A stretch of 53,909 bases of DNA, the filler included, from Catajapyx aquilonaris (lineage: Eukaryota), in assembly GCA_000934665.2 (NCBI GenBank). It is 2 parts of 2 records of this genome, joined end to end, with 100 filler letters (N's around TTAATTAATTAA, not from the genome) between each part and the next. Parts side by side here need not be neighbours in the genome. Positions count along the whole stretch, not along the records: positions 27,042 to 53,909 come from KZ539291.1; 1 more part is not named here. One strand, written 5' to 3'. Below are positions 5,462 through 52,343 of the stretch, one piece after another. The notes under the pieces are model-generated. The model did no database searches. It saw only the letters and a program-made list of their open reading frames with translations, and was not told the origin of the DNA. The translations under genes were made by a program, and so were the position numbers. Numbering within the stretch: position 1 is the stretch's first letter; the number at the start of each line of letters is the position of its first letter.

Positions 5462-6097
5462 GAGTTGCACCTGGAGAGCCATATATGCTATGCACGAGAA
5501 GGTGACGTCATCCTATTGCGACATCTACACGGTTTTTAAAAAGGCTGCTTCCACCCCTCGTAACCATCCAAGATAATTCTACATGATTGCCTACTCCCTC
5601 TGATAAACTATAAAAACATTATGTGTCAGTTTCAAGGTCTAGTTTAAACGGAGGTAATGCGAGCCACCAGGCAGTGGCGGAACTAGGGTAGTTTGGCCGA
5701 ACTCGGGTCCCTGAGGTTAGGGGGCCCCTGGGCCCTGAGCAGCATACCCGCATAACTGTCGCTAAAAAAATAAAAAAATACATGTAGTTCAAAATTAGAG
5801 GAAAGAGAGCGCAGGTCGACGCGAATAACGTGTGACAGTTGATTTGCCCGCTTCCCCTGTTTCCTCCCTTGTCCTGTTGGCCCTCTGGAAGTGGGGGCAG
5901 GAGGGGAGTAGGAGGAAGTAGGAGAGGGAGGCCGGGGAGAGCGGGCGGAGAGAGCGGTGGAAATGGATTGAGAGGAGTGGCGCCGAGCCGTCCCCAAGAT
6001 AGTCCTGATATTTTCAGCATTTTGCGGGGGGACCTGTGTCGAGGTAAAAACACACTATTCTGGAGGTAAAAGGAGTTATAAGCTCATTTCCAAAGTA

Positions 6098-6845
6098 CAG
6101 GGTGTTCCAGAGTTAACGACTCACTCTTTGAAACGCAATTACTTTCGAACGGAACAACATATTTATTTAAAGTACGTACCAAAACATCAAGGGAGGTTGC
6201 GAAAATCTTCCATGTAGGTGACAGTACTAAGCAATGCTCAGGTCTTGCAACAAAAATGGCCGAAGCAAGACTGTCATTAGAGAAACGTGTCCAGTGTGTT
6301 CGACTGTATTCAGTGACAAAAAATGTTACAGAAGTGTGCCGTCAAATGGCAAACCTTTTCGGTGGACTGGCTCCTACCCGAAAAACTGTTGCGAGGATAA
6401 ACCAACGGTTCGATGAAACTGGAAGTGTCTTGGATCAAAAGAAACCCGGCAAAGGGAGAACAGTTGTGAATGCAGAAAACAAACAGCGCATCCGAGATGC
6501 ACTGGAAAGTTCTCCAGCAAAAGCAAAATCAGTCCGACGCCTGTGGGGTTATCTGAAGGAAAAGGTTTACCACCATCGAATGGGCTCCCTGGAGCATCTG
6601 CGTGACATAATCACACAGGAATTCAACGCGATCCCTGTTGACTTCTGTCGGAAGGTCTGCGACAACGTCGCCTTGCGATTGCAGGCCTGCATCGACGTGG
6701 AAGGGGGGTTGACCATACCATGGACCATACCAGGTCTTAAGTTAGTATTTCCTTGATGTTTTGGTACGTACATTAAATAAATATGTTATTCCGTTCGAAA
6801 GTAATTGCGTTTCAAAGAGTGAGTCGTCAACTCTGGAACACCCTG
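6098..6845 (+). mobile_element. Internally deleted Tc1/mariner-superfamily element (DUF4817/rosa-maT type)
   Basis: ~95-bp TIRs CAGGGTGTTCCAGAGTT.., TA TSD at both ends, internal transposase-derived ORF. Confidence 0.92.
6256..6756 (+). CDS. Truncated transposase ORF: N-terminal HTH fused in frame to the C-terminus, catalytic core deleted
   Basis: 166-aa ORF. N-terminus ...PTRKTVARINQRFDETGSVLD..PGKGRTV; C-terminus LWGYLKEKVY...LRLQACIDVEGG. No DDD core between them. Confidence 0.7.
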   Translation: MAEARLSLEKRVQCVRLYSVTKNVTEVCRQMANLFGGLAPTRKTVARINQRFDETGSVLDQKKPGKGRTVVNAENKQRIRDALESSPAKAKSVRRLWGYLKEKVYHHRMGSLEHLRDIITQEFNAIPVDFCRKVCDNVALRLQACIDVEGGLTIPWTIPGLKLVFP

Positions 6846-13022: not shown

Positions 13023-14321
13023 TTAACCAATATCAGTAGAAATGGCATTCACAGTCCAGTTAGCCACAGAGACAGTGTTGTTGATTACTGAATTACAATA
13101 CAACTGCCCTTTGGTCTACATCAGCTAAAGTGAAGAAAAAAAACACCAATAATAAATCTGTGTATGTTACTGACCCAGCACTACAATCAATCACTCAGTA
13201 GTCTTCAGCAGACACCAGCCATGCAATGCTTCCCAAGTATTTACAACCTACTCAGGCAGCCAGCCACCCTTGCCCTACCCTTCTCCAGTAACATGAACTT
13301 TGCAGAATGGAGAGATAGCTAGCTTGGGTAACGATTTTCGGCTAGGGGGCGGTGGGGGGGGGGGGGGNAGCAGCTACTCCTCCATTTCCATTATTGACCG
13401 ACCGCTTGCCTGGAATCATCCACCCATCCAGCCTCCCCCTCCCTCACCATCAGGACACACCCCGCCCCCACACCCTCCCAAAATGCAGGTGACGGCCAGG
13501 CCAGCTGTAGACAATTGCCGTGGCATGCGCTACCCGACTTACCCACCTATGATAGGATCATATGACAGCGAGCCATGTATGTCTGGGCCTGCACAGTGCA
13601 CACTTACTTTTTGAGTTTGCTGGATATGGAGCGATAGTGCCGGAGAAAATCTCCGCGGCCACCGCTCTCCGCCATGTTGCCTTCCACCGCCTTCCACCAT
13701 CAGGCAACCTCGCATGAGTCGCATCATGGAGTCTTTACAGCTGTTATGCATAGCTATTGTTTTCACTATCAGCTCCCTGGTCAGCGCTTCTGCCCCTGAA
13801 TGTGCCAATATCGTGGTCAATATCATCTAAATTTGTTACTGCACTATGGAGTACGAAGGGCATTAATAACGCTGTTGCACCTTCCAGCCTATATTGTATG
13901 CCGTAATTATGTGCCTGTATCACGGCCTGTATGTATGAAACGCAGGCGCTAGCTCCTCGTTGTTAAGAGTCAATTTTGCCCGATAACTAATAACAGTAGC
14001 AGCTACTCTGGAAACACGACGATACTAGCGTCTGTTTCTGACTTTATGTTATCCATGCTCTCAAGATCAAGCATCAAGATGGCAGTTGGCTAGAGACTTG
14101 GGATTTGGTTGGAGGTGTATATTTTGGTCCATTCATCGTTGTATAACTCCCTTAGTGCTAGTCGTAATTACTAGTGGGGGATTTTGTACATTTGCATGCA
14201 TGTGTTATCACTGCGTACAGGAGAGCAGATGCAGAGTTTTCATGCCAACATGAGTAAGCATCACTTGGTGAGCTGCGGAGTTTGATATGAGGCGTAATGC
14301 AACACTTGGGAAGTACTATAA

Positions 14322-14429
14322 GTCCAACAAGAATTGTCGCAGCGGCAGCGCACGAACTACAATCTACGAGCACAAGTATATGAGAGACTGTAGTTCGTGC
14401 GCTGCCGCTTGCGACAATTATTGTTGGAC
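14322..14429. repeat. ~108-bp hairpin (tiny MITE-like)
   Basis: GTCCAACAAGAATTGTCGCAGCGGCAGCGCACGAACTAC and its near-perfect reverse complement, separated by a short loop. Confidence 0.8.
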
Positions 14430-14802
14430 ACCAGGTACATTTGGTTAACCCTTCTCAGGGACTCCGCAACTGGGTAGGCGAAGAAATATTTTGCACCTCT
14501 GGGTGGAGAGATATGGAAGTGACGGGGTGAGGGATGGAGCCCTTTGTGTTGGTGTGTTTCTGAGGCTTTGAGGTGACTGCACCTCACCAAATTCCCAGTG
14601 GTGTTAGTTGCTGTTAATATTTCAAACACCCATAGTAGGTGTTGCTTACATTTAGGGAATTGTATTCACATTTTCACTTGACTTGTTCTAATATTATATT
14701 TTGATTGTCATTGTCGTTCTGCTGCTGACTGTTGGACCTGGACTAGGAATGTGTTTACATTTTTACTGTAAATGTTTTTTTTTTTAACCTTGAGTGATTG
14801 TA

Positions 14803-19934: not shown

Positions 19935-21652
19935 CCCCTTGAGCCCCAGCCACCTAGAATCTAGGCGATGAGAACTCGACCACGCAGTACCAGCTACACC
20001 CGCCATCGCCTAGTTTTCTGCTTACGCTGCAAATACGGACAAGATATTTTACAAACAATAACAGCTATACTTACCCAATCCTGGAAAACCATATGAATGT
20101 GTTGGAAACAATTTTATTCCCATATAAGCCCCTTAATTAATTTCCAAACAGATCGCTGAAAAGATGAAAATCCAAGTAATACCGGCCAAGTGTTAGGCTG
20201 ATTTAATTATGAAATACGTTAAAATATACCATACGGAATAACAATCTTGAGAAGCGTGCCAGATGAATTTGCTGAAATCGTCGTACTTTTCGAGAAATAA
20301 GTATATTTGGGAGTTATCCGAAGTGACAGGCAAGTCGCACAAAAATATTAATATATTTCTGGAAAAATACGAGGGGTGATCAAAAAGTTCCCGGACTGTC
20401 GATATACCGTGCAAACCAGTGGAGCTACGAACTTGTGACGTTAGGGGGCGCTAGGTGCACCTTTCATCTATTAGTCTGAAAAATCTCGTCTTCATAGGTG
20501 CACATGTTTCCGAGTTTCGGCAGTTTTCTTGACACCGTGTTGTTGTGCTTCTGCGATTTTTCGAAATGGCTGACGTTAGGGAGCAAAAGATTTGCATTAA
20601 ATTTTGCTTCTAGCTCCACAAAACTTCGGATGCAACCTACCGAATGCTGAACAAGGCTTTTGATGAACAAGTTGTAAGACAAGCAATAACATATGAGTGG
20701 TGTAACAGCTTCAAAGGTGGCTCGCCAAGTGCGCGGCAAAATCAACTCAATGCTGATCATTTTCTTTGACATTTTAGGAATTGTGCATATGGAGTTTCTC
20801 CCTCCTGATAAAACTGTCAACGGCAATTCTTACTGCGATGGGTTGAGACGATTTAGGCTCAATTGGCCGGGGATATGGAAGAACAGAGACTGGTTGCTGG
20901 CTTGCTGCACCATGACAATGCCGCCTGCACACACCTCACGCGTAGTCAGGGACTTCCTGATAAAAAATAACATGACCACTGTTCCCCACCCTGACTGTTC
21001 GTTTGTCCTGGCACCATGTGATTTCTACCTCTTCCCTAAAATGAAATTTGGGTAGAAAAGGAGGCATTTTGACTCCACTAAAGAGGTCTAAGCAAAATCG
21101 CAGCAGGTGTTGAACACACTACTGTTGACCAATTTTTTTTTGGTGCTTCCAAAAATGGGAAATTCGCTGGAATTGTTGTATACGTGCCCAAGGTGACTAC
21201 TTTGAAGGTGGTGCAGTGGAAATTAGGACTTAAAGTAAATATTAATGTTTTTATGAACACAGTCCGGGAACTTTTTGATCACACCTCGTACAACGATTTC
21301 AACAAAGTCTTGTGGAATGGTTCTCAAGATTGTTATTCCGTTTATTTTAACGTATTTCATAATTAAATCAGCCTAACATTTGGCTGGTAGTACTTGGATG
21401 TTCATATTTTCAGCGATCTGTTTGGAAATTAATTTATGGACTTGTAGCCAAGGAAAATTGTTTCTAATATAAACGTTGTGTTTTGCATGAAAGTAAAAGT
21501 ATAGATGTTATTATTTGTAAACTATCTTATCCTTATTTGCAAGTGGAAACTGAAGCGAAAAGAATCTAGGCGATGGAGGTAAAGCTGATACGAGTGATAC
21601 CTGGTGGTCAAGTTCTCATCGCCTAGATTCTGGGCGGCTGGGGCTCTACGCG
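19935..21652. mobile_element. piggyBac-like non-autonomous element with long (~350 bp) imperfect TIRs
   Basis: TTAA at 19931-19934 and 21653-21656. Arms 19935-20290 and 21290-21652 match in reverse complement. Confidence 0.8.
20370..21288 (+). mobile_element. Internally deleted, decayed mariner (DD34D) element
   Basis: TIR CGAGG(G/T)GTGATCAAAAAGTTCCCGGACTGT with TA TSDs. Transposase remnants EQKICIKFCF.., MLIIFFDILGIVHMEFLP..TVN..YC, HHDNA and LAPCDFYLFPKMK, with stops and frameshifts. Confidence 0.93.
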
Positions 21653-26941: not shown

Positions 26942-27040
26942 NNNNNNNNNNNNNNNNNNNNNNNNNNNNNNNNNNNNNNNNNNNNTTAATTAATTAANNN
27001 NNNNNNNNNNNNNNNNNNNNNNNNNNNNNNNNNNNNNNNN
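26942..27040. other. Assembly gap / artificial contig spacer
   Basis: N run with a central TTAATTAATTAA (26986-26997), which gives stop codons in all six frames. Confidence 0.95.
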
Positions 27041-27464
27041 NATACACGTGAGGCACGTATGGGTAGCGTTTGTCCAGGATAAATAGCCATATGTCCTCAT
27101 TGATTACCGGAAATGCTCCAGTGTAATTTTCAGCACTGCACATATACTTGACCCATACCCAAAATAGCGATTAATTCAACAAAATTGTTCAATAGGTGTT
27201 AACTGCAGCAGTGTACCACCATGTGTATACATACCACACACACTTTAAAAAAAACGTCAAGTAATTAGCATGTGCCACTTCCGTCACAGGGGAATGACCC
27301 ACAACGCCTATATATGCCTCTTAAAAAATACAAGGTCTTCCTATCAGGCGCCTTATCAAATCCTGAATGAAGCGTCACATTTGCGAAATCTGAGCGTAGG
27401 TGCAAGGCGTGTAATCCTCTACCCCCTCCAAATTCCGGATTTCAAAATGAGACAATTGACCAAC

Positions 27465-30389
27465 CTCATTATCCGTGAAGTTCCAGTGTACCGGTCTCTT
27501 TGACTCGCATCTCAGCTGAAGAGTTGACCCCGGTTGTACCATCATGTCTCCACTAGGTGTCGACGGGTATATCCTCGGTGGGTCATACTTGACATAACCC
27601 TGCGCATCTGCACAAAAAACAATCACGTCATTCACAAAACTGACAACCTTCACACCACAAAATCACCTTTCCAAAAACACAAGAGAAGCAGAAGAGCCCT
27701 GAAGCCCTTCATGCTAAGTAACACACTGGCTCAAGACTGTGGCTCGAATATGCGTCAGAGTCTCGGTTTCCTATACTCCTACACTGTGCTGAGGTAATTT
27801 TCTGACTATTCTGTCGTCACTTGTACTTCCTCTAGACAAGTATAGTATCAATCTCTGATAAAAAACCTGTTAGGTCCAGCACCTGTTTGGAGATGCATTA
27901 GAAGGATGACATCAATCACTGGGATGAGTAAAGTGACAAGTGATGCACTTTTTTGGTCCATATTTTTTGGCAGGACCTATAAACATGTTGATGGTAATTT
28001 AGAAGAAAAATGCCGATGCAGATTTTTAGTATAAAATTACATTAATTACACTTGGCCAGATACAAGTTGGTGCATAATTTCCAGGTAATGATTTATATTA
28101 TCTATGAGTAATGAGTTTATCTTGATCCGTTTCCTTTTCAGAAACATGTACCACAGCTTCTTACGCAGATTTATTTTTTGCCAACATTCTTGTCCCGTCA
28201 ATGTAAATTCACAAATATTTGGTCGGACAGTGACGTACATTGAAATATTTGCAAAAGCTTATCTGAAGATAACAGCGCATGGAAAGCAAATATCAGTACG
28301 AGATTTCCTAACACAGAATATGGTGAAAATTAGCTAACACCGCAGTGAAAACGTGTAACAATCCTATTAAATGGGTGTGGCAAAAATCTGAGTCCTTCGT
28401 GGGCTCCATATCCATAATTAATTCGCACCTATCTGCGTGCCCTTTTCCTGACTCCCATTATGCTGGGTGTAGCTCCCATTTTGCGGATAAATATAGTCCA
28501 TGGTTTAATTTTCAGCATATGGATCACGTCTTTCCTGAAATAGCTAAGATCAGGTGCTAAGTGTCTATACGTCGGTTTTTTCCCCCCCGGATGTATACAG
28601 GACATATGGTGGATTCACCTTTAAAATTTATTGAAACGCTGTCCCTGAACGATATGAGTAGGCAGAAGGTGATAGCAGCTAATAAATGAACTGTCCTCTG
28701 TTATCTCATGGCAGCCCCCAAACAATCCACGAGATAACCATTTTTGCCCACTCATCTCATGAGAAACAGACCCCTCCACAAATCTCACAGGATGTTTTTG
28801 AGTGTCCTGCCTTCCTATTGGTTTCCCGTTAATTAATTAAGCGATGTTGTGCCCTGTTTAATTATTACTGATAATCTGAACATGCACTGCAATGTTGCTC
28901 GCCTGCCGCTGTACAATAACTCCAAAGTGTGTGTGGGCGACAGACTTTCATTTCAGTCGCCAAGGTCCCTGTCTGGCTCGAACTTGCTTGAACATGACCA
29001 TACTTGACCTACTAATGGGCAGTACCAGAAACCGTATTGGCATCAATGCTCTGTGGCTGTGGGTGTTGAAGAAAATAGAGAGAAAAAAGGACCCCACGCT
29101 GCCATGGTTTCTTTTTCATAATGGGGCTTCCTCTGGGATTGGGATCTGTTGTCAGGAAATGAAAGGAAGCAGCAGCTGACATTTGTAAGATATCCTTAGC
29201 TTGAAGATAAAATGGCCAGGCGGTCCAGGGATGTCAAGACATATATCATCACTTGGTCCTCTAGCAACATATAGGTCCGTATTTCAGGATTTGAAGCATT
29301 GCACAGTTGTTGGATAAATACTGGTGTTGAAAGGTGGCCATATTGCAAACTAATCAAGCGTCTGGGAAAGTGATTCGTAGAGTGTTGCCCTCTTGGCATC
29401 GAATCTGTCATTGTTGCCAACGTGCCAATTTGGTGGCAACTGTCCGAAATAATTGGCCATGTAGCACCTCATGGCTCCAATGATAGACAAGACAATATCG
29501 GCTGGAAGGAATGGTGTTTATCCACTTGAGCAAGCAGCAACTGCCCACATGAAAATCCGGCCATTATAATTATGCAGCCGGACCTCCGGGTTGTGCCCAT
29601 ATAAATCGTCCGTGTAGCGGTGCAGGCATGGACCACAACAAAAAAATCATTGTTGCGAAGGGTAACAGATGCTGGAAGATTGAGCCAGACATATGTGCTC
29701 GAGCATGTAATTTTTTGACACCCCCCATGAGCACCATCCTGGATATCGAGTGTCCTATAACTGGCATTGCAATTGTAACGCTGTTTTATTGTCACATGCT
29801 TATGTTTTTTTTTTAACCTCGCGCTGTTGGAGGGCTGGCAATGTGCAATACCGTTCCATCAGCTTGATTAGACAACGTATCCTTGTTCAAAGTACACTTG
29901 TTTGTGTTTGCTTCGGGAAATTAGTTTGGACACCCACCTACGCTGCCAATATCCACCTCGTCCATTTTCGGCTATTAATACATGCACACTGCGACATTTT
30001 CTTGTTGGAGGGTCACCTTTGGTACAATGTTAATTTCCGGTTAAATCCTGCACCATCGCCGGTAGTCTTATTAATTGCCATTCATTTATATGTTTTTTAT
30101 TTTGGTATACATTTCAGAGAGGTAATATATACCTATTGTGGTTACTTTTTTATTGACGACTACCAGCATTATGGTATATCTGCTGCAGTTATGCAACATG
30201 GCCTTAGGCATTATAATTACTATGGGAAAGAACATGGGTTCGATGCCCGGTACCGATGCCGGCTTTCCTGGTCACCTCAGGGCACACTTAGTTTCCAAAA
30301 AGAAGCCTTTGCCCTTTAATCCCTAAGAATAGCAACAGGTTGCAACTCTCTGTCCATACTGGAGCTGGCTCCAGGGTGACAACCAGCCC

Positions 30390-30451
<62 letters not shown>

Positions 30452-32633
30452 GCCGTTTGTTTCGAAGAACAATGGGCGCCACCTTTTTGCTCCATTGGGT
30501 GCCTGGTTGCGCCATCATCAATCTATCGACTCAGTTTTCTTGGTACAAGGTACTTTCCCCTCAGAAACTGGTTGGAGCATGAGGAAGCGCAAAAATCCTC
30601 TCTTAAAACTAAACGCCCATTATAAATGAAGGTGGTCCGATATAATATTTTTTTTGCAGGGAGCTGGGGAAGGAAGGCGGCGGAAGTCAGTTATCGCCCT
30701 CCGGAAGCAGTGGGTCAGCTGTGATAATGAAGTTTAGTCACGGGGACAAAACGACAGCAAGGTCTCTCTCTCTCTCTAGCATTTTATGCCAAGGACTCCA
30801 TATCACCTCGCAACAGGACGCTATTTGGTTATTACCACCTTTAGCTAACAGCCAATTTTCGCTTAGAAATATAATCAGACATAACAGGAAGCCGATGATT
30901 TCAGGCATAGTAAACAGCTCTATTGGGGACAGTCAATAATAACGATGTCCAATTGGCCTGAATATCACTTTTTTTTCTGTGCTATTATTGGGTGTCACGT
31001 TTTCAAGTCGACTAATGAGATGGAAAAAAAAAATATATTGCAGTCAGATCGTGTTGGCGCATTCGTTAGACGCCGGCTTCCTATTTCCTTTGTAGGCACC
31101 GCCGGAGTTACTGCCCTTTTGTTGACAAAATGCTAGGAATGTGTGTTAGTCACCACGTTTTTTGATTAGACCCCAGACTGCTTGTATATCGGAGTGAAAA
31201 ACCCGCAAAGAGTCGTTGCCCTATACTCATTAAGCTAAAAAAAACCGCAATCAGCAGTGATTCGCTAATATTGAGTCAACTGCATAATAATGAATATGCA
31301 CACTTTTTGAGTGTCCTGGACTCCACCTGTATGAAATTTTCGTCCACATTTTCCAGGAATGTACAGTGAAAGCGGCCATGATTCCTAAGAAGTCGTCCCC
31401 ATTTCGATCGTATTTTGTGCAAAAAACCGGAACCTTGGCAGCAGTGCAGGCTGGCATCGATCTGTGTTCTGGAATTCAAGCATTCTACTCATCAGATTTC
31501 CCCAACTTATCGATGTCCCGCATCTACGTCAACACCACCAGTTGCGACATACTCAGTACACTCAAATTAAAATAAATCAACTAAACTTTCGACACCCACG
31601 TGTACTATACACGTGCGTTTGTTCTCCTGAAAATTCACCGTGATTCCTAAGAAAAAGGGCCCCTCCTCCTCAATGGCACCTTTGAGGTTTGGCCTTCTTC
31701 CTGGAGGCACGTGAGTCACATACGTACAAGGTTCTTGTATTAGGTGAGGCCATTATCATTCAAGGTTGTCCACCGGCATTGTTTCTATACACGTTAAGTT
31801 TCTCATTTAACTATTTTCCGGGTTGTCGTCAGTTCAATAATATTGTACTCTGTACATAAATTCTTGTCAGCAGGTTTCAATATGTAATAAAACTAATTAG
31901 TAACTAATAAATTATAATGGCACTAAATTGGCTTACATGTGTCGATGTGTGAGTTTGTGACATAACGTTTCAAAAAATAAATCCGATTATTAGTTAGTAT
32001 TGCACCTATTTGAGAGTGAATCAATTGCCCTGGAGGCACAGGGTGAGTCACAGCATTCTTAAGAGCTCACGTACATTCCTCGACCTAAAAGGTAAGACTT
32101 TTAATTACCTTTCCAAGCCCTCTACCCCCCTAAAGCCTGGCAGGTAAAAGAGATAAGTACTTTCTGACCAGGGTTCAGGGTCGTTTAGGCGCCTTTTCTG
32201 GCAGTTTGGGAAGCCTTGGGATCAGGAACCCCGTATAGTCAAGGTCCTTAAGAATCTGCGGTGATGCTTCCGTCCACATTTGCGTTTGTTTTTAAGACCA
32301 CGATTTAAGATTACTGTTGCTAACTGATGTTGCGGTAATTAGCTCTAATAAACAGGTATATGACCATTCGATCCTATACTAGCAATGATGAGCCCAATGA
32401 GGCCTATGGCTTTTTAAAACAAATATGCAATGACCTTTGACCTCCATAGCCGCGACAGGTGTGCACCATTTAAAGCACGTAGGCGGCAACTCCAGACAAA
32501 AAAAATATAGTTGAAAAGAATTATGCAGAGACACTATAGGGTGGGGCTGAGATAAAGCTGAATAGTGTTTTTCCCCACCTGCCTGACTGGCAATCCACGC
32601 TGTTAGGATGCAAATGAGAAGGGCGGTCCGCAT
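27465..32633 (-). CDS. PVR/VEGFR-like Ig-domain gene B, first two coding exons (remainder not seen before the gap)
   Basis: Exon 32633-32579 encodes the signal peptide MRTALLICILTAWIASQA (phase 1). Exon 27607-27465 encodes DAQGYVKYDPPRIYPSTPSGDMMVQPGSTLQLRCESKRPVHWNFTDNE (phase 0). Phases and motif match exons 1-2 of the gene at 38345. Confidence 0.7.
29200..29800 (-). pseudogene. Possible highly decayed Ty3/gypsy integrase relic
   Basis: DGAHGGCQK....YVW and AGFSCGQLLLAQVDKHHS loosely recall the H.G..K...ARSYVWWP and AGPF.G..L.VVD.HS integrase motifs. Very degenerate. Confidence 0.3.
30190..30447 (+). mobile_element. Probable tRNA-derived SINE ending in an (ATT)19 microsatellite (30391-30447)
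   Basis: B-box-like GGTTCGATGCC at ~30237 and a simple-repeat tail. The A box is degenerate. Confidence 0.55.
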
Positions 32634-34201
32634 CTTATCAGCACCCGAGATGGTCAATGCCGACATGTCATCGCAAGGGGTCACTGGCACTGCCCAATTT
32701 ACACGGGGGTAACTGGGCCCCAACTAGGACATCCGACCTGTACTGGTTGTGTAACAGATAAGGACTGACTGAGAGAGTGTCTCCGGGTTTTGCTGGATGA
32801 CTCTGGCGCGCTTTTTACATGGGACGCATGCGCTGAATGGGGCAAGCAAGGTTGGAAATACAAGTGTGGGTCAGAAACAGGTATGATGCGTGGCTAGTGT
32901 ATAGGTTGCCAACACTGCATGTACGGTGATTCATGGGAGCGTACTTGAACTTCTAATAAGTGATGCTAGTTGAAGGTTTTTTAACGACAAATTCCGCCCG
33001 AGGCGCATATTCAATGTAACGTACGTGATTTGTTTAATGTGCAGCCGATTTACGATGCATTTCCATATGGACGTAACTACGTAACCTCGTTTCAAAGAAA
33101 CAGGGTTGCACTATAGCGTCGAAAGCCGGTCTTTCGAAATATGCAGTACTACCCCATATCTGCAATACGTATCGGAAGTATCAGGGAGACACGATGACAA
33201 GCATTACCTCAACTTTAACAACTTTCTAAACTGACAAGTGAGACATATATTAGGCTCCAAATGTCGTAGTGCATGGTATTGATTAATTTCACCACATTCT
33301 GCCACGCTGTATGTTCATGTTCCAACATGGTTCCAACATAGTAAAATAATTTTTTAAAGGGTGGGCATAAACTTTGATTGCACGTTGTTTTTTACGATAC
33401 AAAATACTGTAGTAGCGCAGTATAATTCTGACACAGAGTGGGTGAGTAAGCAGTGCTGAACGACTAACTACATACGCTGACAGTTGACATTTAAAAAGTC
33501 ATCTGCAGATCTCACTATCCAACGGCATTATTCTGACTCATTTTTGGAGTTTCCCATGTCAAGTAGTGTTTCTGCGTCTACCTCTGACGATGATCTCTAC
33601 CAAGAGCTAATAACTCTTGTCTCTACTAATTGTAGTCCCAAGTAGTTTTCAAAGTAGTTGAGAGATATACCAATAATGGAATAATTACGGCAACACCCCT
33701 GCCACCATCGATTTCCAACCTACAAATGCCTTTCAATTCATAAGCAGAAGGTAATCCATCAAGTAGAGTAGATTTAGTAGGCGGAATTTATTGGCATGTC
33801 TTTCTAACTGTGGCTGTCATGCAAACAATCTAAATACACATGTTATGTTGGAATGACATGCTTACTAATTGCACTCATGCAGGAAACGATTGAAAGCCAA
33901 CTCATACTCTCTCCTGATACATTTTAGCGTGGGAGTAAGCTCTAAGAAGTCAATCCTTAGCACCATCAATCTCCTCTCAAGTAGTTCATATAGCCGATGA
34001 GTAAGATCATTGATTTCTTGGGGGCTGCACGCTGAGCAATGCTACGTTGTCTTCTGACAATGCCGGATGATGGTGGGAGTGCTATTTCTATTGGAATTCG
34101 ATCCTACGCGACACAACAATGCTTCAACCCTTCCAAATCAGTTCAAATAGCGCGCCGCCCTGTTGGCTCCCTCCGCCAGTTGGCACCACTGGATCCTCCT
34201 C

Positions 34202-34217
34202 TGCCGAGTCACGTGAT
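34202..34217. promoter_or_regulatory. Overlapping ARE (GTGACTCGGCA on - strand) and E-box/CLEAR-like GTCACGTGAT just upstream of the POMP ATG
   Basis: TGCCGAGTCACGTGAT matches RTGACnnnGCA and contains CACGTG, ending 5 nt before the start codon. Confidence 0.55.
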
Positions 34218-34222
34218 CCAAG

Positions 34223-36493
34223 ATGGTGAGTTTTCGGCGTTGTCATCCTCCTTCGAAAGAGTAGCTTCGATCGAAGGGGTTTTTGGGTCGTTCGCTCTTT
34301 TGGGTGTCCAGAAGAAGGGTCCGGAAAAACTCTGGGATTGTTGCCTGGATAGTGCATGCAGTGATGGTGGGGGATTTCTCTTGGGAGAGAGCCACACTTA
34401 CCTTAGTATTACTGTAGTTGTGCTTATTTTTGGTGTGACTCTCTTCTTTTCAGGCTGGAAGAATGATGCCCAAGTTGGAGGGAAAGACGGGGCGGGAGGA
34501 GAAGCAGATGCCCAGGGAAGGACTCTACGGGGTGCACGACGTCATGACCTACGGGTAAGGTTCTTGCTCGTCAAATGCTTCGGATGCTCGATGTAGCTCC
34601 GCACAGGTTTAGTTAGCTGCCAGAAGGTGTGCACAGTTGTACTGCAAGTACCGTACGTCTAGGCATACGTCTACCGTATGTGAAAAATGGGATTACCCAG
34701 AGTCACATGACAGTTATCTGAATGACAAGGTAATAGCGGTAATAGTAGTACTGTATAAATAACCTATAAAATAGCCTTGTGTATTCTATTGCAAAACAGG
34801 AATATGAATGGTTTATGAACGACCCGACAGCGATCTGTACTTACCTAACAGAAGGATCGTTGATAATTAACCCCCTACAATTTCAATCACTTCTGCGTAC
34901 TTTGACCGACACCAAGTTCAACGTAAATACTGTATAATAACTCATTAGGAAATTGCGCTCTTCGGCACATGTAAACAAATGGACATGACGTAAACGGTTA
35001 GTTGGAGCAGCATGTTTACACTGTACATGTGCTCAGGGATCCAAGTTACGAACAAATCCGACTTATGTACATTTTCAGGAACATAACCCATTCGTAGACC
35101 AGGGACTACCTGTATTCTGTTGCAATACCGTTGTTCACATTTTAACACAGGTATGACAGTGTTGCCCTTTATCCAATGGAGTTCACATAAAAATTATTAC
35201 ATGTGAAATATTTGCATTTGTTATGAGTCAATTAAATGAACTACTTCTGGAACTAATTGTGGGAAAACTGACTAGGATACACCATTCCTACCTACCTGTG
35301 CATGAAACTCAAGATCTTAGCCTACTTTCCATACATAGATCCCTTGCAAGAAGCAGGTCTGCCATCTAATGGACTCTGGACAGACAAGGGAAAGCTCTTT
35401 CATGTGGCATTTTCAAGTGTGAGAGTGGCAGTGATTGTCAGTGCCAACTGAGCCCACCATCTTGAACATGCCCTACAGAACTACGTATAGTTATACCGAG
35501 TTAAAGCCGGTACCGACGTAAGAGTTTTCTCTCATAAGAGGAGCCAACTGCGCATGCCCGGATACGAGGAAAGAGGAAAAGTTGAAAATTTTCAACTTTA
35601 ATCCCCTTTTAGAGGGACAAGAGGGGCCCTGAGGCGACAAAGAGTCCGTCTCGACGTACAAGATTTCTCGCACAAGAGGACTCTTATGAAAGAAACTCTA
35701 ACGTGGATACTGGCCTTTATACCATGCTTGCAAGAAATAAAATGGAGGCTGGATGATAGCATTTATACCATGTCGAACTGAGTCTGGGCAAAGTGTGCAA
35801 GGAAGAACCAGCCAGCAGCCAGTCAGAATGCACTGAGGCAGGGAAGCTCTAGGCAGCTAATGTTCATGCATGGTCTGTATTGCGTCAGTGAATGAGTTAT
35901 ACAAGTAGGCCTACATAAATTTAAATGGTCAATTTTTTTTGCACAAGTTTGTAGTGATTCGGGGAGCATATCAATATATTCTAAGGGGAAATTTTTTAGC
36001 AAAATGGTTTCAAAAATTCCGAAAATTGTACATATGTTGATACTAATGCATGCCACTCCGATCAAAATTGACAAAGTTAATAATGTCAATATGCATTTCT
36101 AATCCAGGTTGGCAGCTACTCGAGACAACCTAACGTCATCTCATCCTCTGGAAAAGTCTGAGAAGAATGTAAGCATCCTTGGTTTCATCAAGCAGTCCAA
36201 TCTCTTAATATGGCATTTGTTTCCTACAGTACTTCAAGACTTTGGAGGAGATGGAGATGAATGCTGCCCGTCGACATCAGGGGAATCACATGCCCCTTGT
36301 GCTGCACATGGAGCGTCGTTCGGCCATGAAGGTCGGCCACCTGTCCTTTCTTCCCCGATCCAATCTCATGCATGATGTCTTGACTGGACGAGACTCAGAT
36401 GTGGGCTTTGAAGACTACCTCAACCCTGCTGAGTTTCGTGAGGTCATGGGTCAACCCCATGCTGTCATGGAAAAACAGCTGGGGCTGCTGTAA
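34223..36493 (+). CDS. POMP: Proteasome maturation protein (POMP/Ump1), complete, 4 coding exons, 142 aa
   Basis: Exons 34223-34225 (ATG|gtgagt), 34454-34554, 36108-36168 and 36230-36493; all GT-AG and phase-consistent. Motifs EGLYGVHD, SHPLEKSEKN, QGNHMPL.L.MER, LP.SNLM.DVLTGRD..VGFED.LN, MGQPH..ME..LGLL. AATAAA at 36573. Confidence 0.96.
35504..35716. mobile_element. Harbinger-like MITE in POMP intron 2
   Basis: Homologous to 10836-11016; TTA TSD. Confidence 0.8.
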
Positions 36494-36610
36494 ATGGAAT
36501 AAGTATTTCCACATGGTACATTTTGAAGGTCTTTTTAAGATTTATTGTGTTTCGTATTAAATGAAAATGTTCAATAAATTGCTCCATGCCCATCATTCTT
36601 GTTTTTGAAC

Positions 36611-38345
36611 TCACACAGTAATGTTGTCGTCCACTTCAAATTCCTTACCTGAAAAATTGTACATTTATTTTAATCAAGGTTGTCATTTTGTGACTCATTG
36701 AAACAAATCTGGCCGGATTTCCCTGCACAGTTATTATTTAATTGCGGGTTATGCCAGCCATAAAGAATGAGTGCAATCCACCTGGATTTGTTTTATTGAA
36801 TTCAATGTTCCTTGACCTAGCTGAATCAAATACAGGCAGCCCCTGACTTATGTAAATAGATCGTTTAGTAGGTACATCAGTTGAAGTGGAATCAGTGGAA
36901 ATCGGGGTTTGCCTGTATTTTGAAGTACATTCAAACTGGGCAATCGGAACTGCCATCTTTTCTTACAAGCAAAGTTTCATCCAATATATTGCTTGAAGGG
37001 CATATGTAAGTTCAATCTGAGGGACTTTTTGAAGGATGAGGACAGGGATGCCCAGTGCAGATCTCTTAATGAGTTCAGTATTTTATAAGGTCGGAAATGT
37101 ACTTACTAATGACATGAATGATTTGAGTTGCAGAATTCTTTTCTTGCATATGAGTAGTAAGGGTGCAGGTGTAACTTCCCGAGTTGGCCATTGAGGCATT
37201 TGTAATGCTGAGCACACGAGTTGCTTGTACGCATGCATTCTTTGCCACAGTTTTTTTTTCCAACTTTGGATCACCTACAGTGATGCCATCTTCAGTTGGA
37301 ATTGCCCATTCCAGGGTGAAAATGTCCCCCATATCCATTGTGACAGTGCAAGTCAGTGTGAAATTTTGGCCCTGAACTGCCAAGGAATCGACGCTTGAAG
37401 TAATATGTGGTTTTGGGGGTGACTTCAGTTGACCTGAAATGACCAGGTATTGAATTCTGTGGTCAAAGAACAATAATAATCAACACATACGTAGTATCAT
37501 TATTTCCCAAAGACTCGTTTCGACTTTGCTTCCACGAGTTGCAATGCAATCGTAGAGCCCTGTGTGAAGTGCAACTTGTGCGTCAGTAATGGTGAAGCCA
37601 ACTTGAGGGTCATATTTTACCAGAGATGATTCAGGCGATATCTGCGTATGAAGTGGTATGTATTAATTTTGAAGAGTTAACCTCATTCTGAACACATACC
37701 TCCTCTTCACTGTTGAGAACCAAGCTGATATGAACATCTGGGCTTGTCGGCTTGCATGGGATTGTCACTGACTGGTGTTGAGTCGCCAACCGAAAGTTGT
37801 ACGGCTGCGATTGTGTCAACAAATGAGTCTCATCTGAAAAATACATGTCTAGAAAAAGTCAGGCGCTTAAAACGTGTAGTGTTTACCTTGTACGTAGACA
37901 TAAACATGGGCACTTCTGTTGTTGCTATCTAAGCAGGTGTAAAAACCAGTGTCTTCAAAATGTGCTTGCAAGGTCAAATTTGAGCCATGAGGCAGCACAC
38001 TTGAAGGAACAAAGTACGAGTCAATTTCTGCATCTTCCTGAAAATTTAGATGCTGATTGTTATGATCAAGCGTGATGTGGGTTTCCCTACTGATGCAATA
38101 CCTCATTTGCGTAGTTCCAGTGGATTGGCTGCTTTCCGAGACATGTCAGTGTGAGCGTCTGTCCACTTTTGGTGACAATCTGGTTACCATCCTCAGTTAG
38201 GATCACAGGTGCCGCATCTTGTTCTACAGGTAATGCTGGTGGAACATGCCAAAATTAAAACAGATTGCTGATTATGTCTATGGCAATGCGAATACATACC
38301 ACTGGCTAGTGCGAACAAAAAGGCAAGGATTAAAGCCCAAATCAT
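36611..38345 (-). CDS. Secreted PVR/VEGFR-like protein: signal peptide + 3 Ig domains, no TM or kinase (326 aa model)
   Basis: Exons 38345-38300, 38235-38102, 38037-37887, 37833-37700, 37641-37491, 37433-37107 and 36648-36611. All GT-AG, phases consistent, no stops. Signal peptide MIWALILAFLFALAS; Ig2 motifs VTIPCKPTSPDV and YDPQVGF are typical of the VEGFR/PVR family; (D/N).G.Y.C in the Ig domains. The terminal exon is the least certain. Confidence 0.85.
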
Positions 38346-40338
38346 TGTCACGAGCTGAAATGTCAGTGTGAAAGGTATTTGCCTGTTTTTATTGCTTTTA
38401 TAGTTTTGGGGGAGGTGCATGGGAAAAAAAAGGAAGGAGAAAATTGCGCATGTTGAAAGATTATACGCAGAAAGTAGTTATGATTCATTATGGTCATTTT
38501 CGAGTTTCCTGTATGCTTACGTGATGCCTTGGTTTTCCTCTTAAACCCACGATCATATTTGGGAAGTGGTCTGCCAAGTCTTGATATGGGCCAGCAGACT
38601 TTTTGTTGTCTAAAGGTGGTGACTGTTGTTATATAATCAGTACAAAAGATATTGGCTCATTACTGAAACTACATTCATGCAAATTAATTTTGTTGAAACC
38701 TAATTCAGCAGGGTTGTAATTAAGTGTTTGGAGAATTTGTAAGGGCGATGAACATGTTGGTGCTTACTTAACTAGCAACTGGTATGTGCTCTTCGTAGCC
38801 TATGTGTAAAAAATGATGGACATTGGAAATTAATTCATCTTATAATATTATTTTCTCTCAAATGTCTAATACTGTAAATCAGGGTGAATTGAGGATAAAT
38901 TTACCAAGATATGTGGCCTAATGTTATAGGCTTTTTTAAAAAATAAATTGAAAGCTATGAAAATGTGGATTTTGCAGGAGTGAAGGGAAGCAATGGACGT
39001 AATTGGCTTAATGAGAATCCGCTGTTATTTGGCATCATTGTTTGTTGATGCAATCCAGTGTTTAGGCAGATAGCTTAGTATACACACACAGTGGAATTTT
39101 GCAGTTATTGGTGGTTTTTGGTGAGTAATTTGAGATCTCTAAACTTCAAATTGCTGAATTTTGATAATTATTACATTTTTTGTGTGAAAATATACCTGTT
39201 TTTTTGTACCGGCAATGGGAATAGGGAAACGGTTGCAACGTTTTAATTCAACGCCCCTATATTAATAACAATGGTCTTTATTATGTGCCATTAGAAAAGC
39301 ATTGTTGTTATGATAATTTATTGAAATCAAATGGATTTTTGAATTTGAGAAAAGCTTTTTTTTTCTCTCTTTCTTCCTTTTTTTTAAAAGACCTGCAAGA
39401 GTCGGCATGACATTTTGTATAATTTTTGAATAAAATTGCCAAAGGTAATAATTTGCTGCTAGCTTTTTGACGGTGCGCTACATGCAGTTGGCCTAATCAT
39501 CCAACTGGATCAAGCCCCTAATTACGCACCATTTCCAAGCCTTTAATCTACTTTGCACATTGCGTGAGTTGATTTGCTAATAAAATCTACCGGTCCCAAA
39601 TCCACGCTGTGACGTCACCGCAGTGTTGCACATCTGCCCAATACATTTAACATTAAATGTGCTTGCATCAACGCAGGAATGGGTTTAATTAGTAATTTAA
39701 ATACTTTATAAACATGTGTTGGGTTTAAATGTGGTTGTTCCATCCCCGCCCTGGGGCTATTGTCCCTGTTCGTCTGGCAACTGTGTACTTGAAAAATGGC
39801 AGCTGCCGTGTTACTTGTTCGCGGTTAATCCCTCCAGTTGAGGAGAGGCGGGTCCCCCTCGCCTCCTTTTCCGTCCAGTGTGTCTCAGGTGGCTTGCCTC
39901 CGTAGGTACCTCCTTCCCGGCCAAGTGGTGAGTTGAATTCTTGGAACACTAGAATGACTAGAAGTCAGCGTGGGGTTTGAAGGGAGGGCTTCAAACACAA
40001 AAGGTCCTTTCCGTGCATAATGTGTCGGCAAAGACATCTGTACCCACTTGCGCTGTCTTTTAGGCAAACTATTTTTCATTCATGAAGAAGCACATTTTGT
40101 TATGAAATGATCACAGCTGACCTTGACAAACCGCAGTCAAGTAACATGCACCTACTAATTATATGTCTCTGTGGTTGTTTTTTTGTGGTATTTCTTATGT
40201 CAGTTAGATCACTAAGGAGGAAACTAATATGCTGTAATTCGCATATAATTTCCCAAAGATGGCTAAGGACATTTGCAGGGAGATAATTTTGTAGATCTGT
40301 TACATGTCTGACTAAATTGAAATTTTAAAAAGTTACAA

Positions 40339-49700: not shown

Positions 49701-52343
49701 GCACCGTTGGGTGTATTTGCGAAGCATATTTTATGTCAATGGGAGGCATATTGGCAGATTGATTTTTTTTTTTAAAAAAAAGGAGGGGGATTAGGCAGAA
49801 GTTTAGTAGCAAGTTTTAGAAGGATTTGCGTCATGCTGTTCGATATTAGATTCAAGTTTTAGTGTTTAGCAATGGCTGAATCGTTTGTCATCGTATATTG
49901 CCCAACTTTTTTATTATTATCTTGACACAAAATTGAGAGACTCACTTTTGTTTCCGTGAGCTCCGTTACAACCAGTGCTTAATCATTCTAGCACGTCTCA
50001 TGGACAGTTTGTCAGACACATTATGGTGGGTGTCCAGTTAGCGAAAACAACAGCACAAAAGCACATTTGGAAAGACCTTGACCGCACTCAAACAGCCCAT
50101 ATGTGGATAATTCCCAGCGTGCAGGTAATCATCAGGCACCCCTTCCCACCTCCCTGTCCACACTGTGTATTTGTCGGGACAGGACACGAGTCCCCGCGGT
50201 TTGCGGATCCATTAGCCCCACTCTAAAGCAGAGCACACAGCAGCACCGGTGGTTCTAACCAACGTCCTCTTTGAATCCTCCCCACAGAGGCAGCTGATGG
50301 AACAGAAGCAGAGGCAGAAGAGGCAGCAGGGCATGGGCATGGTGCAGGCCTCGGACGCCAGGGTCTCCTCGGCCAAAGGACGCAGACCCCTCAGTGCACG
50401 GCCATTGTCATCAGGAGCCAAGAGGGAGCTCCATGGTGAGATATAAAAGGGTCATTTACACACCCCGACACTGTCCACTGTTTGGTTCGTAGGCAATAGC
50501 AACGACAAAAAAAAGGAGCATTATTCATTCATACTGAACATATCGAATAACAGCAAAGTCCAATCTGAAGGAGAAGCTTAAAAGCGAACTAATATAGAGC
50601 TGGAAACCACTTTAAAATATTTACGAGTGCATACAGGTCACTTTTAAGGCTCTGTTCCTAGCAACCAGGTCCAGTTTCAACATTGCTGTGTAAACACATT
50701 TTGGGACATTTTGCCAGCGCAACTTTTACCCTTTTCAAAAGAAAACGTGGGATGACACGCGACCCGACCTTCCAAGTCTTCTTACATGATCGATCGGTCG
50801 ATATGTGGCCCCTTGGCCCCCACCCATCGATTGGTGCTGGGGGGTCTTCGAATTCTCAAGCCGACAGCAGGAGATCTGGCTCTTATTGCGCCAAATAAGG
50901 AACCATACTCATTTTTTGGACCCCCCACCACCTGCACACAATTTGTGTTCTGCTCTTTTGTCTAATCAGATCCCTGGGGTCCGGGGGGGGGGGGGGGNGG
51001 GGGGGGGGGGGAGCTCTATCATTTATTAAACAGGGATTTCCCGGAGGATTGTACAGCTAAGCCGCAGGATTTGGCATGACAGTTGGAGGCATACACACCG
51101 GTCGAGCTGCTGCGGGATGCGTTTAATTTGCTCTCACAAAGTGCTGCACTCAGATGTGATTAATTCTGTATTCAGCCTGGCCTTGTGTCGCATTATAAAG
51201 GTGGACTAGGCGGAGATTCTGATTATCAGAGGCTCTGGAGCCTTTTGTTCTGTTGCATTGGGTTGGGATGACAACTTCTTGGTTTCTGATGTGAAGAAGC
51301 CTCTCTTTGGCTTCCTAAATGGCTTTTGAGCTGGTCTGTATGGGAGGAAGATTTGACACTGTAGAGTGCTATACGGTGAAGCTGTAGCGTGAGTGGAAGA
51401 GGCTTGCAGGAGTTGGGATGCAACAGGTACATAATGCTGGGAGGCAGCTTCCGGCTTAATATTACTGGCGTTTTGATGCGATTATCGCACGCAGCTCAAA
51501 TCGCCAGGATTCAACAGAGTTGACAACAATCAACTTTTTTATATAAAAAAAACCCTGAATAGTAGATGAACTCTGTGTGCGCCTTTCTGCTTATATCGCT
51601 GAATATGGCGCTTATTGATGCTTCATAACACACAATTACGGGGCAGTGCGGTCACATGCCCTCTCCAACTTTTCATTACGTCCGGATGAGCACTTGACAG
51701 CGTTCACTCTGCCTGTTTTCATTAACCGAATGTCAGGTCACCTGTGGGTTGGCCCGGAACGCTGCCGTCATATTGGAAATGCCATAAATTAAATTCGCCA
51801 GGCATCTTCCTATTAGGCGATGCGGAGGTCACATGATCGTCAAAAGGTCGGCCTATTATTCCCAATTCAGACGCATGAATATGAAATTGGGGAAGAATTG
51901 CTCGAGGAAATGCATTTGAAGCTCTTTATTAACTTCAGGGCAAATGTGTTGCAGTTACACACTATTGTTCAGTCGAACAGGTGCATAGGTTGAATCTTAT
52001 CGGAGAGGGCTTCTGTTTCGCTTGAAAATAGAGACCGGTTGAGACTATAAGAACCGTGTCGACTGAGCACTTGGCGCGTTAAATATCATTTACATGCGTA
52101 CTGAAAATGGTGCATATGCAGCATGTATACTGTACATATTGATTATAGTGTGTAAATAACAGCTCCATGTTTATTTTTCCCTATGCGCAGGTTACGACGG
52201 TCCTCTCCAGTACACAATGACCCCAGGGAATCCGGACTCGATGACCACCGTCCAAGTTCTACCGGTCATCGGCCACAGCACGGATTACGAGGACGACGGC
52301 CTGGAGATCCTGGAGATTTCAAACGACCTCGCCTCTCCAACAG
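43724..52343 (+). CDS. ktub: King tubby / Tubby-family protein, 5' coding exons (Tub domain lies beyond the window)
   Basis: Exons 43724-43752 (MEWSYNNSN, phase 2; tentative), 47672-47825, 50288-50435 and 52191-52343. They read LRQQKLEHQ|RQLMEQKQRQKRQ..GMVQASD..RELH|GYDGPLQY...NPD, matching the TUB/king-tubby N-terminal motifs. Confidence 0.9.
49089..49127 (+). CDS. Candidate alternative first coding exon of king tubby
   Basis: GCC-ATG..MTSLLHELKMDSQ|gtattg, phase 0 and compatible with exon 50288. Inr-like TCAGTT at 49039-49044. Confidence 0.45.

Follow-up and report, generated by a model that had tools for sequence, protein, structure and literature searches.

The window analysed here, a stretch of 53,909 nucleotides from the genome of Catajapyx aquilonaris, carries on its minus strand a gene for a protein with three immunoglobulin (Ig) domains, located at 38345..36611 (gene A). 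Its seven exons add up to 981 nt, encoding 326 amino acids followed by TGA, and are separated by introns 1 to 6 of 64, 64, 53, 58, 57 and 458 nt, all six with GT..AG ends. The initial annotation of this DNA had described seven phase-consistent exons without stops, small introns of 53-64 nt and a minus-strand AATAAA after the gene; the exons and introns were reproduced from the sequence and the AATAAA is present at 36546-36541. Read-through at the 37107 donor gives SKYISDLIKY and then a stop, as had been reported (ORF 37075-37479). A POMP/UMP1 gene on the plus strand (Pfam UMP1, 6e-18) converges on the 3' end of gene A. The features of both genes are listed below; contig joints refer to the transcript contig described thereafter.

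38300..38345, minus strand: exon 1 of gene A, 46 nt, with the ATG and the signal peptide; ends in phase 1 at donor GTATGT
38102..38235, minus strand: exon 2, first half of Ig1, with Cys47 and Trp55; contig joint 38036>38101 (cut +1) fixes its 3' end
37887..38037, minus strand: exon 3, second half of Ig1, with DTGFYTC; contig joints on both sides
37700..37833, minus strand: exon 4, first half of Ig2, with IPCKPTSPDV; contig joints
37491..37641, minus strand: exon 5, second half of Ig2, with YDPQVGF and GLYDC; contig joints
37107..37433, minus strand: exon 6, the entire Ig3, with Cys234, Trp248, Cys273 and Cys295; contig joints
37107, minus strand: 3' end of exon 6, phase 1, donor GTAAGT
36649..37106, minus strand: intron 6, 458 nt; contig joint 36643>37102, a skip of 458 with CT..AC ends (cut +5)
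36611..36648, minus strand: coding part of exon 7, tail (S)KEFEVDDNITV and TGA; contig unbroken from 36230 to 36643
36613-36611, minus strand: TGA stop codon of gene A
36546-36541, minus strand: AATAAA polyadenylation signal of gene A (sequence motif)
36230..36493, plus strand: last coding exon of POMP, with the stop at 36491-36493; contig joint 36168>36230
36573-36578, plus strand: AATAAA of POMP (sequence motif)

Transcript evidence for gene A was obtained from a public run in which 43% of the sampled words of 36500-38500 are present, approximately the share that exons alone would yield. The kind of run is unrecorded, and we take it to derive from RNA because the introns have been removed. 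Its contigs were compared over 27050-40000, and one contig of 1534 nt shows no letter that differs from the window. After the cut shifts given in the list, the joints of this contig coincide exactly with introns 2, 3, 4, 5 and 6, and their CT..AC ends correspond to GT..AG on the minus strand. Such a match to five introns in one spliced contig puts the gene model beyond chance. The junction from 37107 to 36648, which had been singled out for verification, is among those seen in the contig, as a skip of 458 nt. In RNA, gene A uses a private terminal exon that bears the stop codon. Contig cover extends up to about 38210, taking in about 109 nt of exon 2 from its 3' side, and is zero in the bin 38282-38713; exon 1 and intron 1 are predictions. 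Gene A is a transcription unit of its own, with its own stop codon and polyadenylation signal, of which the 3' side is seen in RNA and the 5' exon is predicted. Assembled contigs drop rare forms and prove neither a single transcript nor the ends of the RNA, so a minor isoform that splices from 37107 onward is possible.

The 1534-nt contig continues unbroken from 36643 down to 36230 and then follows plus-strand GT..AG joints of POMP (34365>34453, 34553>36107 and 36168>36230), and we therefore regard it as an assembly merge of two convergent mRNAs. The stop codons of POMP and gene A are about 120 nt apart (36493-36613), and either gene has its polyadenylation signal past that of the other; antisense overlap between the 3' ends of the two mRNAs is probable.

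Translation of the spliced model gave the signal peptide, Ig1-Ig3 and short tail that the initial annotation had claimed, the tail being 12 residues long and hydrophilic. Scanned in stretches of 19 residues, the protein is most hydrophobic from residue 1 on, and the signal peptide is likely cleaved between ASA and LP, judging from the sequence. Cleavage there would leave a mature protein of 310 residues and about 34 kDa, with a pI of 4.8 and five N-x-S/T sites. No transmembrane helix was detected in it, the maximal 19-residue Kyte-Doolittle mean past residue 20 being 0.9. Its seven Cys are at positions 47, 95, 137, 187, 234, 273 and 295, and no member of the three Cys pairs is missing; the D.G.Y.C motifs are present too.

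Cys273 is the seventh, unpaired Cys of Ig3 (KNACVQ) to which the initial annotation had drawn attention, proposing that the protein might dimerise through a disulfide. That this residue is unpaired was confirmed. In an alignment of 14 rows no other row has a Cys here; 12 others carry a residue in the column, and in eight of them it is F, Y, L or V. A single-sequence fold of the Ig3 exon is all-beta with a mean pLDDT of 60.3, which is low confidence, and places Cys273 at the start of a strand. The hydrophobic column in other rows and this placement suggest that Cys273 may instead be a buried free thiol. Covalent dimerisation via Cys273 is only a possibility, and a weakly founded one.

The homology of gene A was investigated first at the level of single exons. 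As a single-exon ORF, the Ig3 exon matched generic Ig families of Pfam, with Ig_3 at 3.7e-08 and 34.2 bits (cutoff 30). The ORF of exon 4 alone reached 18.4 bits (E 0.0019) against PF21339, VEGFR-1-like Ig-like, for which the cutoff is 27; this domain (D2) is split over two exons and the score was taken on exon 4, not on the spliced protein. Among solved structures, the Ig3 exon is matched best by D3 of PDGFR-beta (3mjg_X residues 187-268, E 6.5e-06), and D3 of VEGFR-2 also matches. When the same exon was used as the query of a HMMER search against 1.84 billion representatives, 78 matches were obtained at E <=1e-3. Many of these are multi-Ig proteins that score over several stretches, but a distinct set, made up of proteins of about 800-1430 aa and the 341-aa protein P0039, matches only once each, at residues ~190-360. 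The best match over a receptor's own Ig3 had an E of 1.4e-08. The matched receptors carry names such as 'VEGFR 1-like' and come from insects, crustaceans, chelicerates, molluscs and deuterostomes.

Eighteen of the 78 matches were run through Pfam, with the result that 12 contain a tyrosine kinase domain, four do not, and two are unrelated Ig proteins. Three of the kinase-less proteins (P0028, P0039 and P0066) carry VEGFR-type Ig domains and the fourth, P0013, generic Ig only. The copepod VEGFR-like proteins P0013/P0085 (Lepeophtheirus, 921 aa) and P0066/P0089 (Tigriopus, 928-947 aa) have Ig domains up to about residue 750 and no Pfam kinase, which makes them either paralogs without a kinase or gene models cut short. 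At the other extreme of domain content is P0001, a RefSeq model of 3070 aa from Acanthaster planci, in which three to four complete VEGFR D1-D3 units, with four PF21339 stretches, precede a single kinase at 2497-2812. Either a tandem array has been fused in this model or it represents a receptor whose ligand-binding modules have multiplied.

With the spliced gene A model as query, phmmer returned one co-linear match per receptor, in which model residues 17-325 align with receptor residues ~20-350. Scores were 147.0 bits for the VEGFR1-like protein of Schistocerca nitens, 142.7 for Ladona, and 136.1 and 123.1 (Pollicipes). In the reverse direction, all 16 receptor-type proteins used in tblastn matched 37078-38221 on the minus strand, in N-terminal order. 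Gene A and the receptors have in common the motifs VYVYV.DE.HLL, IPCKPTSPDV, YDPQVGF, LEW..P and NA...SG.Y.C, at an overall identity of 24-33%. An IQ-TREE analysis of 22 D1-D3 segments, with rows picked from the matches of the homology search and with a midpoint root only, put gene A on the insect-plus-crustacean side (split support 86/99) and gave it no firm place within; its end branch measures 1.17 against a median of 0.98. The co-linear D1-D3 alignment, the pancrustacean clade and the PDGFR-beta D3 structure match agree with the earlier assignment of the gene as PVR/VEGFR-like and not a member of another Ig family. The initial annotation had suggested a HMMER search of the 326-aa model and a tree as checks of that assignment, and arthropod VEGFR-like kinases were matched by the one and insect/crustacean grouping was recovered in the other. 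Broader searches added little: a word-indexed search, which is an insensitive method, found no close relative of the Ig3 exon among 5.8 billion clustered proteins, a metagenome scan for related loci gave 155 pattern matches of which none was confirmed, and an ESM Atlas search returned generic Ig clusters only.

The rest of the receptor was not found in the window. Exons for D4-D7, a transmembrane segment or a kinase were not detected by tblastn with the 16 receptor-type proteins, 12 of which bear a kinase. Just one tblastn match has its start in a later Ig domain: residues 568-642 of P0013 align with the Ig3 exon itself (E 7.7e-05). No remnant of Ig4 was found in intron 6 with the receptor proteins. 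Of the 372 stop-to-stop ORFs of at least 55 aa in the window, 366 were scanned with Pfam, the six left out being other frames over gene A itself; none matched PF07714 or another kinase family, and none of the 366 gave an Ig match outside gene A. Four weak tblastn matches to kinase regions, at 14294-14437 and 51084-51203, were dismissed as chance, having a stop inside or lacking a catalytic motif, and the ORFs at these two places have no Pfam match even at E 10. The earlier statement that no transmembrane or kinase exon precedes POMP thus held in both the tblastn search and the Pfam ORF scan. Among the features that define class III/V receptor kinases, a homologous co-linear D1-D3 module is present in gene A, at up to 147 bits. 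Of the four such features tested, the other three, namely D4-D7, the transmembrane helix and the split kinase, are missing, and the gene A product is accordingly not a receptor kinase.

Elsewhere in the window, an ORF at 50216-50443 on the plus strand matches the Tubby N-terminal domain PF16322 below the cutoff (E 1.9e-05) and may be a tubby-like first exon. Transposon remnants lie on the plus strand at 6082-6753 (DUF4817/HTH_32, E 1e-07) and at 20690-21052 (partial Transposase_1 DDE domain, E 9.6e-08). A weak match to the Polycomb EED insertion domain at 30319-30522 on the minus strand (E 6.3e-04) is below the cutoff and has no WD40 matches nearby. A transposon origin of the last exon of gene A was also considered and is unsupported, as neither intron 6 nor the 3' end of the gene has a second copy in the window, where just short imperfect inverted repeats were found.

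A second PVR-like 5' end (gene B) is located 9 kb downstream of gene A, also on the minus strand, with its ATG at 27712. Its features, and the join at which this piece of sequence ends, are as follows.

27667..27712, minus strand: exon 1 of gene B, 46 nt, phase 1, signal peptide MKGFRALLLLLCFWK; donor GTGATT, followed by a 59-nt intron
27465..27607, minus strand: exon 2 of gene B, 143 nt, first half of a PVR-type Ig1, LQLRCESKRPVHWNF; ends with NE followed by gt
26942..27041, no strand: filler join, 44 N + TTAATTAATTAA + 44 N, with stops in all six frames

The first exons of the two genes are equal in length (46 nt) and phase, and exon 2 of gene B ends with NE before the gt at the homologous place. 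In tblastn with the gene A model, exon 2 of gene B is 26% identical to exon 2 of gene A over 50 aa (E 5e-05). With receptor proteins as queries the E values range from 7.8e-04 to 0.34, and in 15 of 16 comparisons the exon is placed at the receptor N-terminus. Scoring of the two exon-2 peptides against 16 receptors gave a mixed outcome, gene B being higher in 10 and gene A in six, and a word-indexed protein search, an insensitive method, gave no match for exon 2 of gene B. Only 63 codons of gene B are present, and the sequence piece ends at 27042, about 420 nt further on. Spacers with stops in six frames are used to concatenate contigs, and because of the filler join at 26942-27041 the DNA below 26942 need not adjoin gene B. 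Gene B may be the start of a full-length receptor gene. Cover of the public run is absent over 27050-33961, which includes gene B, and above about 38210, an absence that counts neither for nor against.

What lies at 38345..36611 is a spliced, open, PVR-derived D1-D3 frame with a signal peptide and without an anchor. We favour, with moderate confidence, the reading that gene A is a stand-alone transcribed gene for a secreted PVR D1-D3 protein, that it arose by 5' duplication, and that its product acts as a trap for PVF ligands. Gene A would have originated when the 5' portion of a PVR gene was duplicated, the probable start of that gene being located 9 kb downstream; the old donor between Ig3 and Ig4 (D3/D4) at 37107 would have been kept and would now be joined to a new terminal exon of 38 nt that lies just ahead of the POMP 3' end. 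The partial duplication proposed in the initial annotation is plausible: a second PVR-like 5' end exists nearby, with a matching exon 1 length and exon 2 end, although just 63 codons of that second copy are present and its identity is as low as 26%. D2-D3 is the ligand-binding unit in VEGFR-1/-2, and the gene A protein would bind dimeric PVF ligands extracellularly. Lacking the membrane-proximal domains and the kinase, it should, by analogy, bind PVF outside the cell without signalling. It would in this way withhold PVF from PVR or alter the range of PVF, and so lower or reshape PVR signalling.

The least probable alternative is that gene A is a functionless transcribed remnant of a partial duplication. 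In its favour, neither the word-indexed search nor the metagenome scan yielded an ortholog. However, the 981-nt frame is open over seven exons, with six canonical introns of which five are used in RNA, and all Ig core residues are intact although the sequence has diverged deeply from all its relatives, gene B included (26% over 50 aa). Such intactness is hard to square with neutral decay and argues for selection, and we consider a remnant very improbable. A different job is conceivable as well. A secreted Ig protein derived from PVR D1-D3 might serve another ligand, adhesion or immune recognition without trapping PVF, and this would fit the fact that identity to receptor D1-D3 is only 24-33%, at which ligand specificity may have changed. 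The absence of a close relative among 5.8 billion clustered proteins in the word search, the E of just 1.4e-08 for the best match of the Ig3 exon over a receptor Ig3, and the occurrence of Cys273 in gene A alone among the aligned rows point the same way. We nevertheless regard another job as rather unlikely, for gene A retains the receptor-family framework motifs of D2 and D3, its branch is not unusually long, and a retained ligand-binding module is most simply expected to keep the ligands of its family.

Alternatively, gene A could be the short output of a larger PVR locus, an isoform made from the same promoter by alternative polyadenylation in the manner of sFlt1, with POMP nested in an intron. 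In other transcripts of that promoter, exon 6 would bypass exon 7 and be spliced to receptor exons further downstream. The donor at 37107 is a strong GTAAGT whose phase, 1, is that of the acceptor of gene B exon 2, and the PVR-like 5' end downstream is on the same strand. Precedents for variation in this part of the receptor exist in Drosophila Pvr, for which a preprint describes three isoforms by alternative splicing in ligand-binding exons (bioRxiv 10.1101/2020.09.01.278382), and in the 3070-aa starfish RefSeq model with its three to four D1-D3 units before one kinase. This arrangement is nevertheless unlikely: the sole assembled form includes exon 7 and extends to the 3' end, where the convergent POMP gene overlaps or adjoins gene A; gene B begins with a start codon and signal peptide of its own; and the splice would have to span an intron exceeding 9 kb, compared to 53-64 nt for the other introns of gene A. 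Slightly more doubtful still is the idea that the two PVR-like starts, at 38345 and 27712, belong to one modular locus of duplicated D1-D3 cassettes, each of which would yield a secreted trap by early termination or be joined by splicing to a common receptor body. If it were true, a switch like that of sFlt1 would have arisen independently in a hexapod, with POMP nested inside, and the starfish model, in which three to four D1-D3 units precede a single kinase, would follow the same principle.

Under the preferred reading of gene A as a separate gene for a secreted PVF trap, the closest relatives in sequence are the arthropod Pvr proteins (VEGFR 1-like; Schistocerca, Ladona, Pollicipes), whose D1-D3 are co-linear with gene A at 123-147 bits and share its linker and strand motifs. 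Gene A differs from them in lacking D4-D7, the transmembrane helix and the split kinase, in ending 12 residues past D3, and in its extra Cys273. In mode of action, the nearest counterpart would be vertebrate sFlt1. According to PMC2773843, D2-D3 is the high-affinity VEGF-binding unit of VEGFR-1/-2, and kinase-less sFlt1, a splice variant of the receptor without the transmembrane and kinase domains, is a decoy. The gene A protein resembles sFlt1, as described there, in being secreted and kinase-less with the ligand-binding Ig domains kept, and by analogy it would be a decoy as well. Gene A has three Ig domains, its own promoter region and a private terminal exon, which sFlt1 does not share; no receptor exons were found in the 9.6 kb of contiguous DNA downstream of gene A, and only the short form was seen. 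sFlt1 keeps six Ig domains.

A separate gene for such a product is known from Drosophila, where, according to PMC12398695, the secreted product of Sdr (Secreted decoy of InR), a decoy for insulin-like peptides, binds the receptor's ligands and is without transmembrane and kinase domains. Gene A is likewise a separate gene for a secreted, anchor-less and kinase-less product, one that would bind ligand by analogy with what that source describes. Sdr belongs to the insulin receptor family, with another fold and other ligands. Vertebrate PDGFRL likewise stands alone as a gene, its product being small, secreted and similar to a PDGFR ectodomain, and two kinase-poor matches in this analysis bear the UniRef name PDGFRL. 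PDGFRL and gene A are likened here by description, and since gene A groups with pancrustacean receptors, any likeness to PDGFRL would be convergent. By these analogies, gene A would work most like sFlt1, but as a gene of its own, as Sdr is and perhaps PDGFRL too.

The P0039 cluster is similar to gene A in architecture and size, with 341 aa made up of a signal peptide, three Ig domains and a 20-residue tail, and is encoded on Logan contigs of 1.0-1.3 kb. Its PDB match is D1-D3 of VEGFR-1 (E 1.8e-23), and it scores 74.9 bits against the gene A model. In contrast to gene A, to which it is 24% identical, P0039 groups with a scorpion receptor (95/89), which indicates an independent short form of chelicerate type, as a gene or an isoform. 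A word-indexed search among longer proteins, again an insensitive method, found no long counterpart of P0039. Short D1-D3 forms may therefore recur in arthropods, as far as these sequences suggest.

A full-text literature search, with subscription journals outside its scope, did not turn up any description of an invertebrate with a stand-alone soluble PVR, nor one of a dedicated extracellular antagonist of PVF ligands. PVR signalling in arthropods steers blood-cell survival and migration as well as epithelial movements. If the trap role proves true, a separately encoded D1-D3 protein would be a dedicated extracellular antagonist of PVF. Traps made from the front end of a receptor would then have arisen repeatedly, by RNA processing in the case of sFlt1, by duplication in Sdr and possibly PDGFRL, and once more in gene A.
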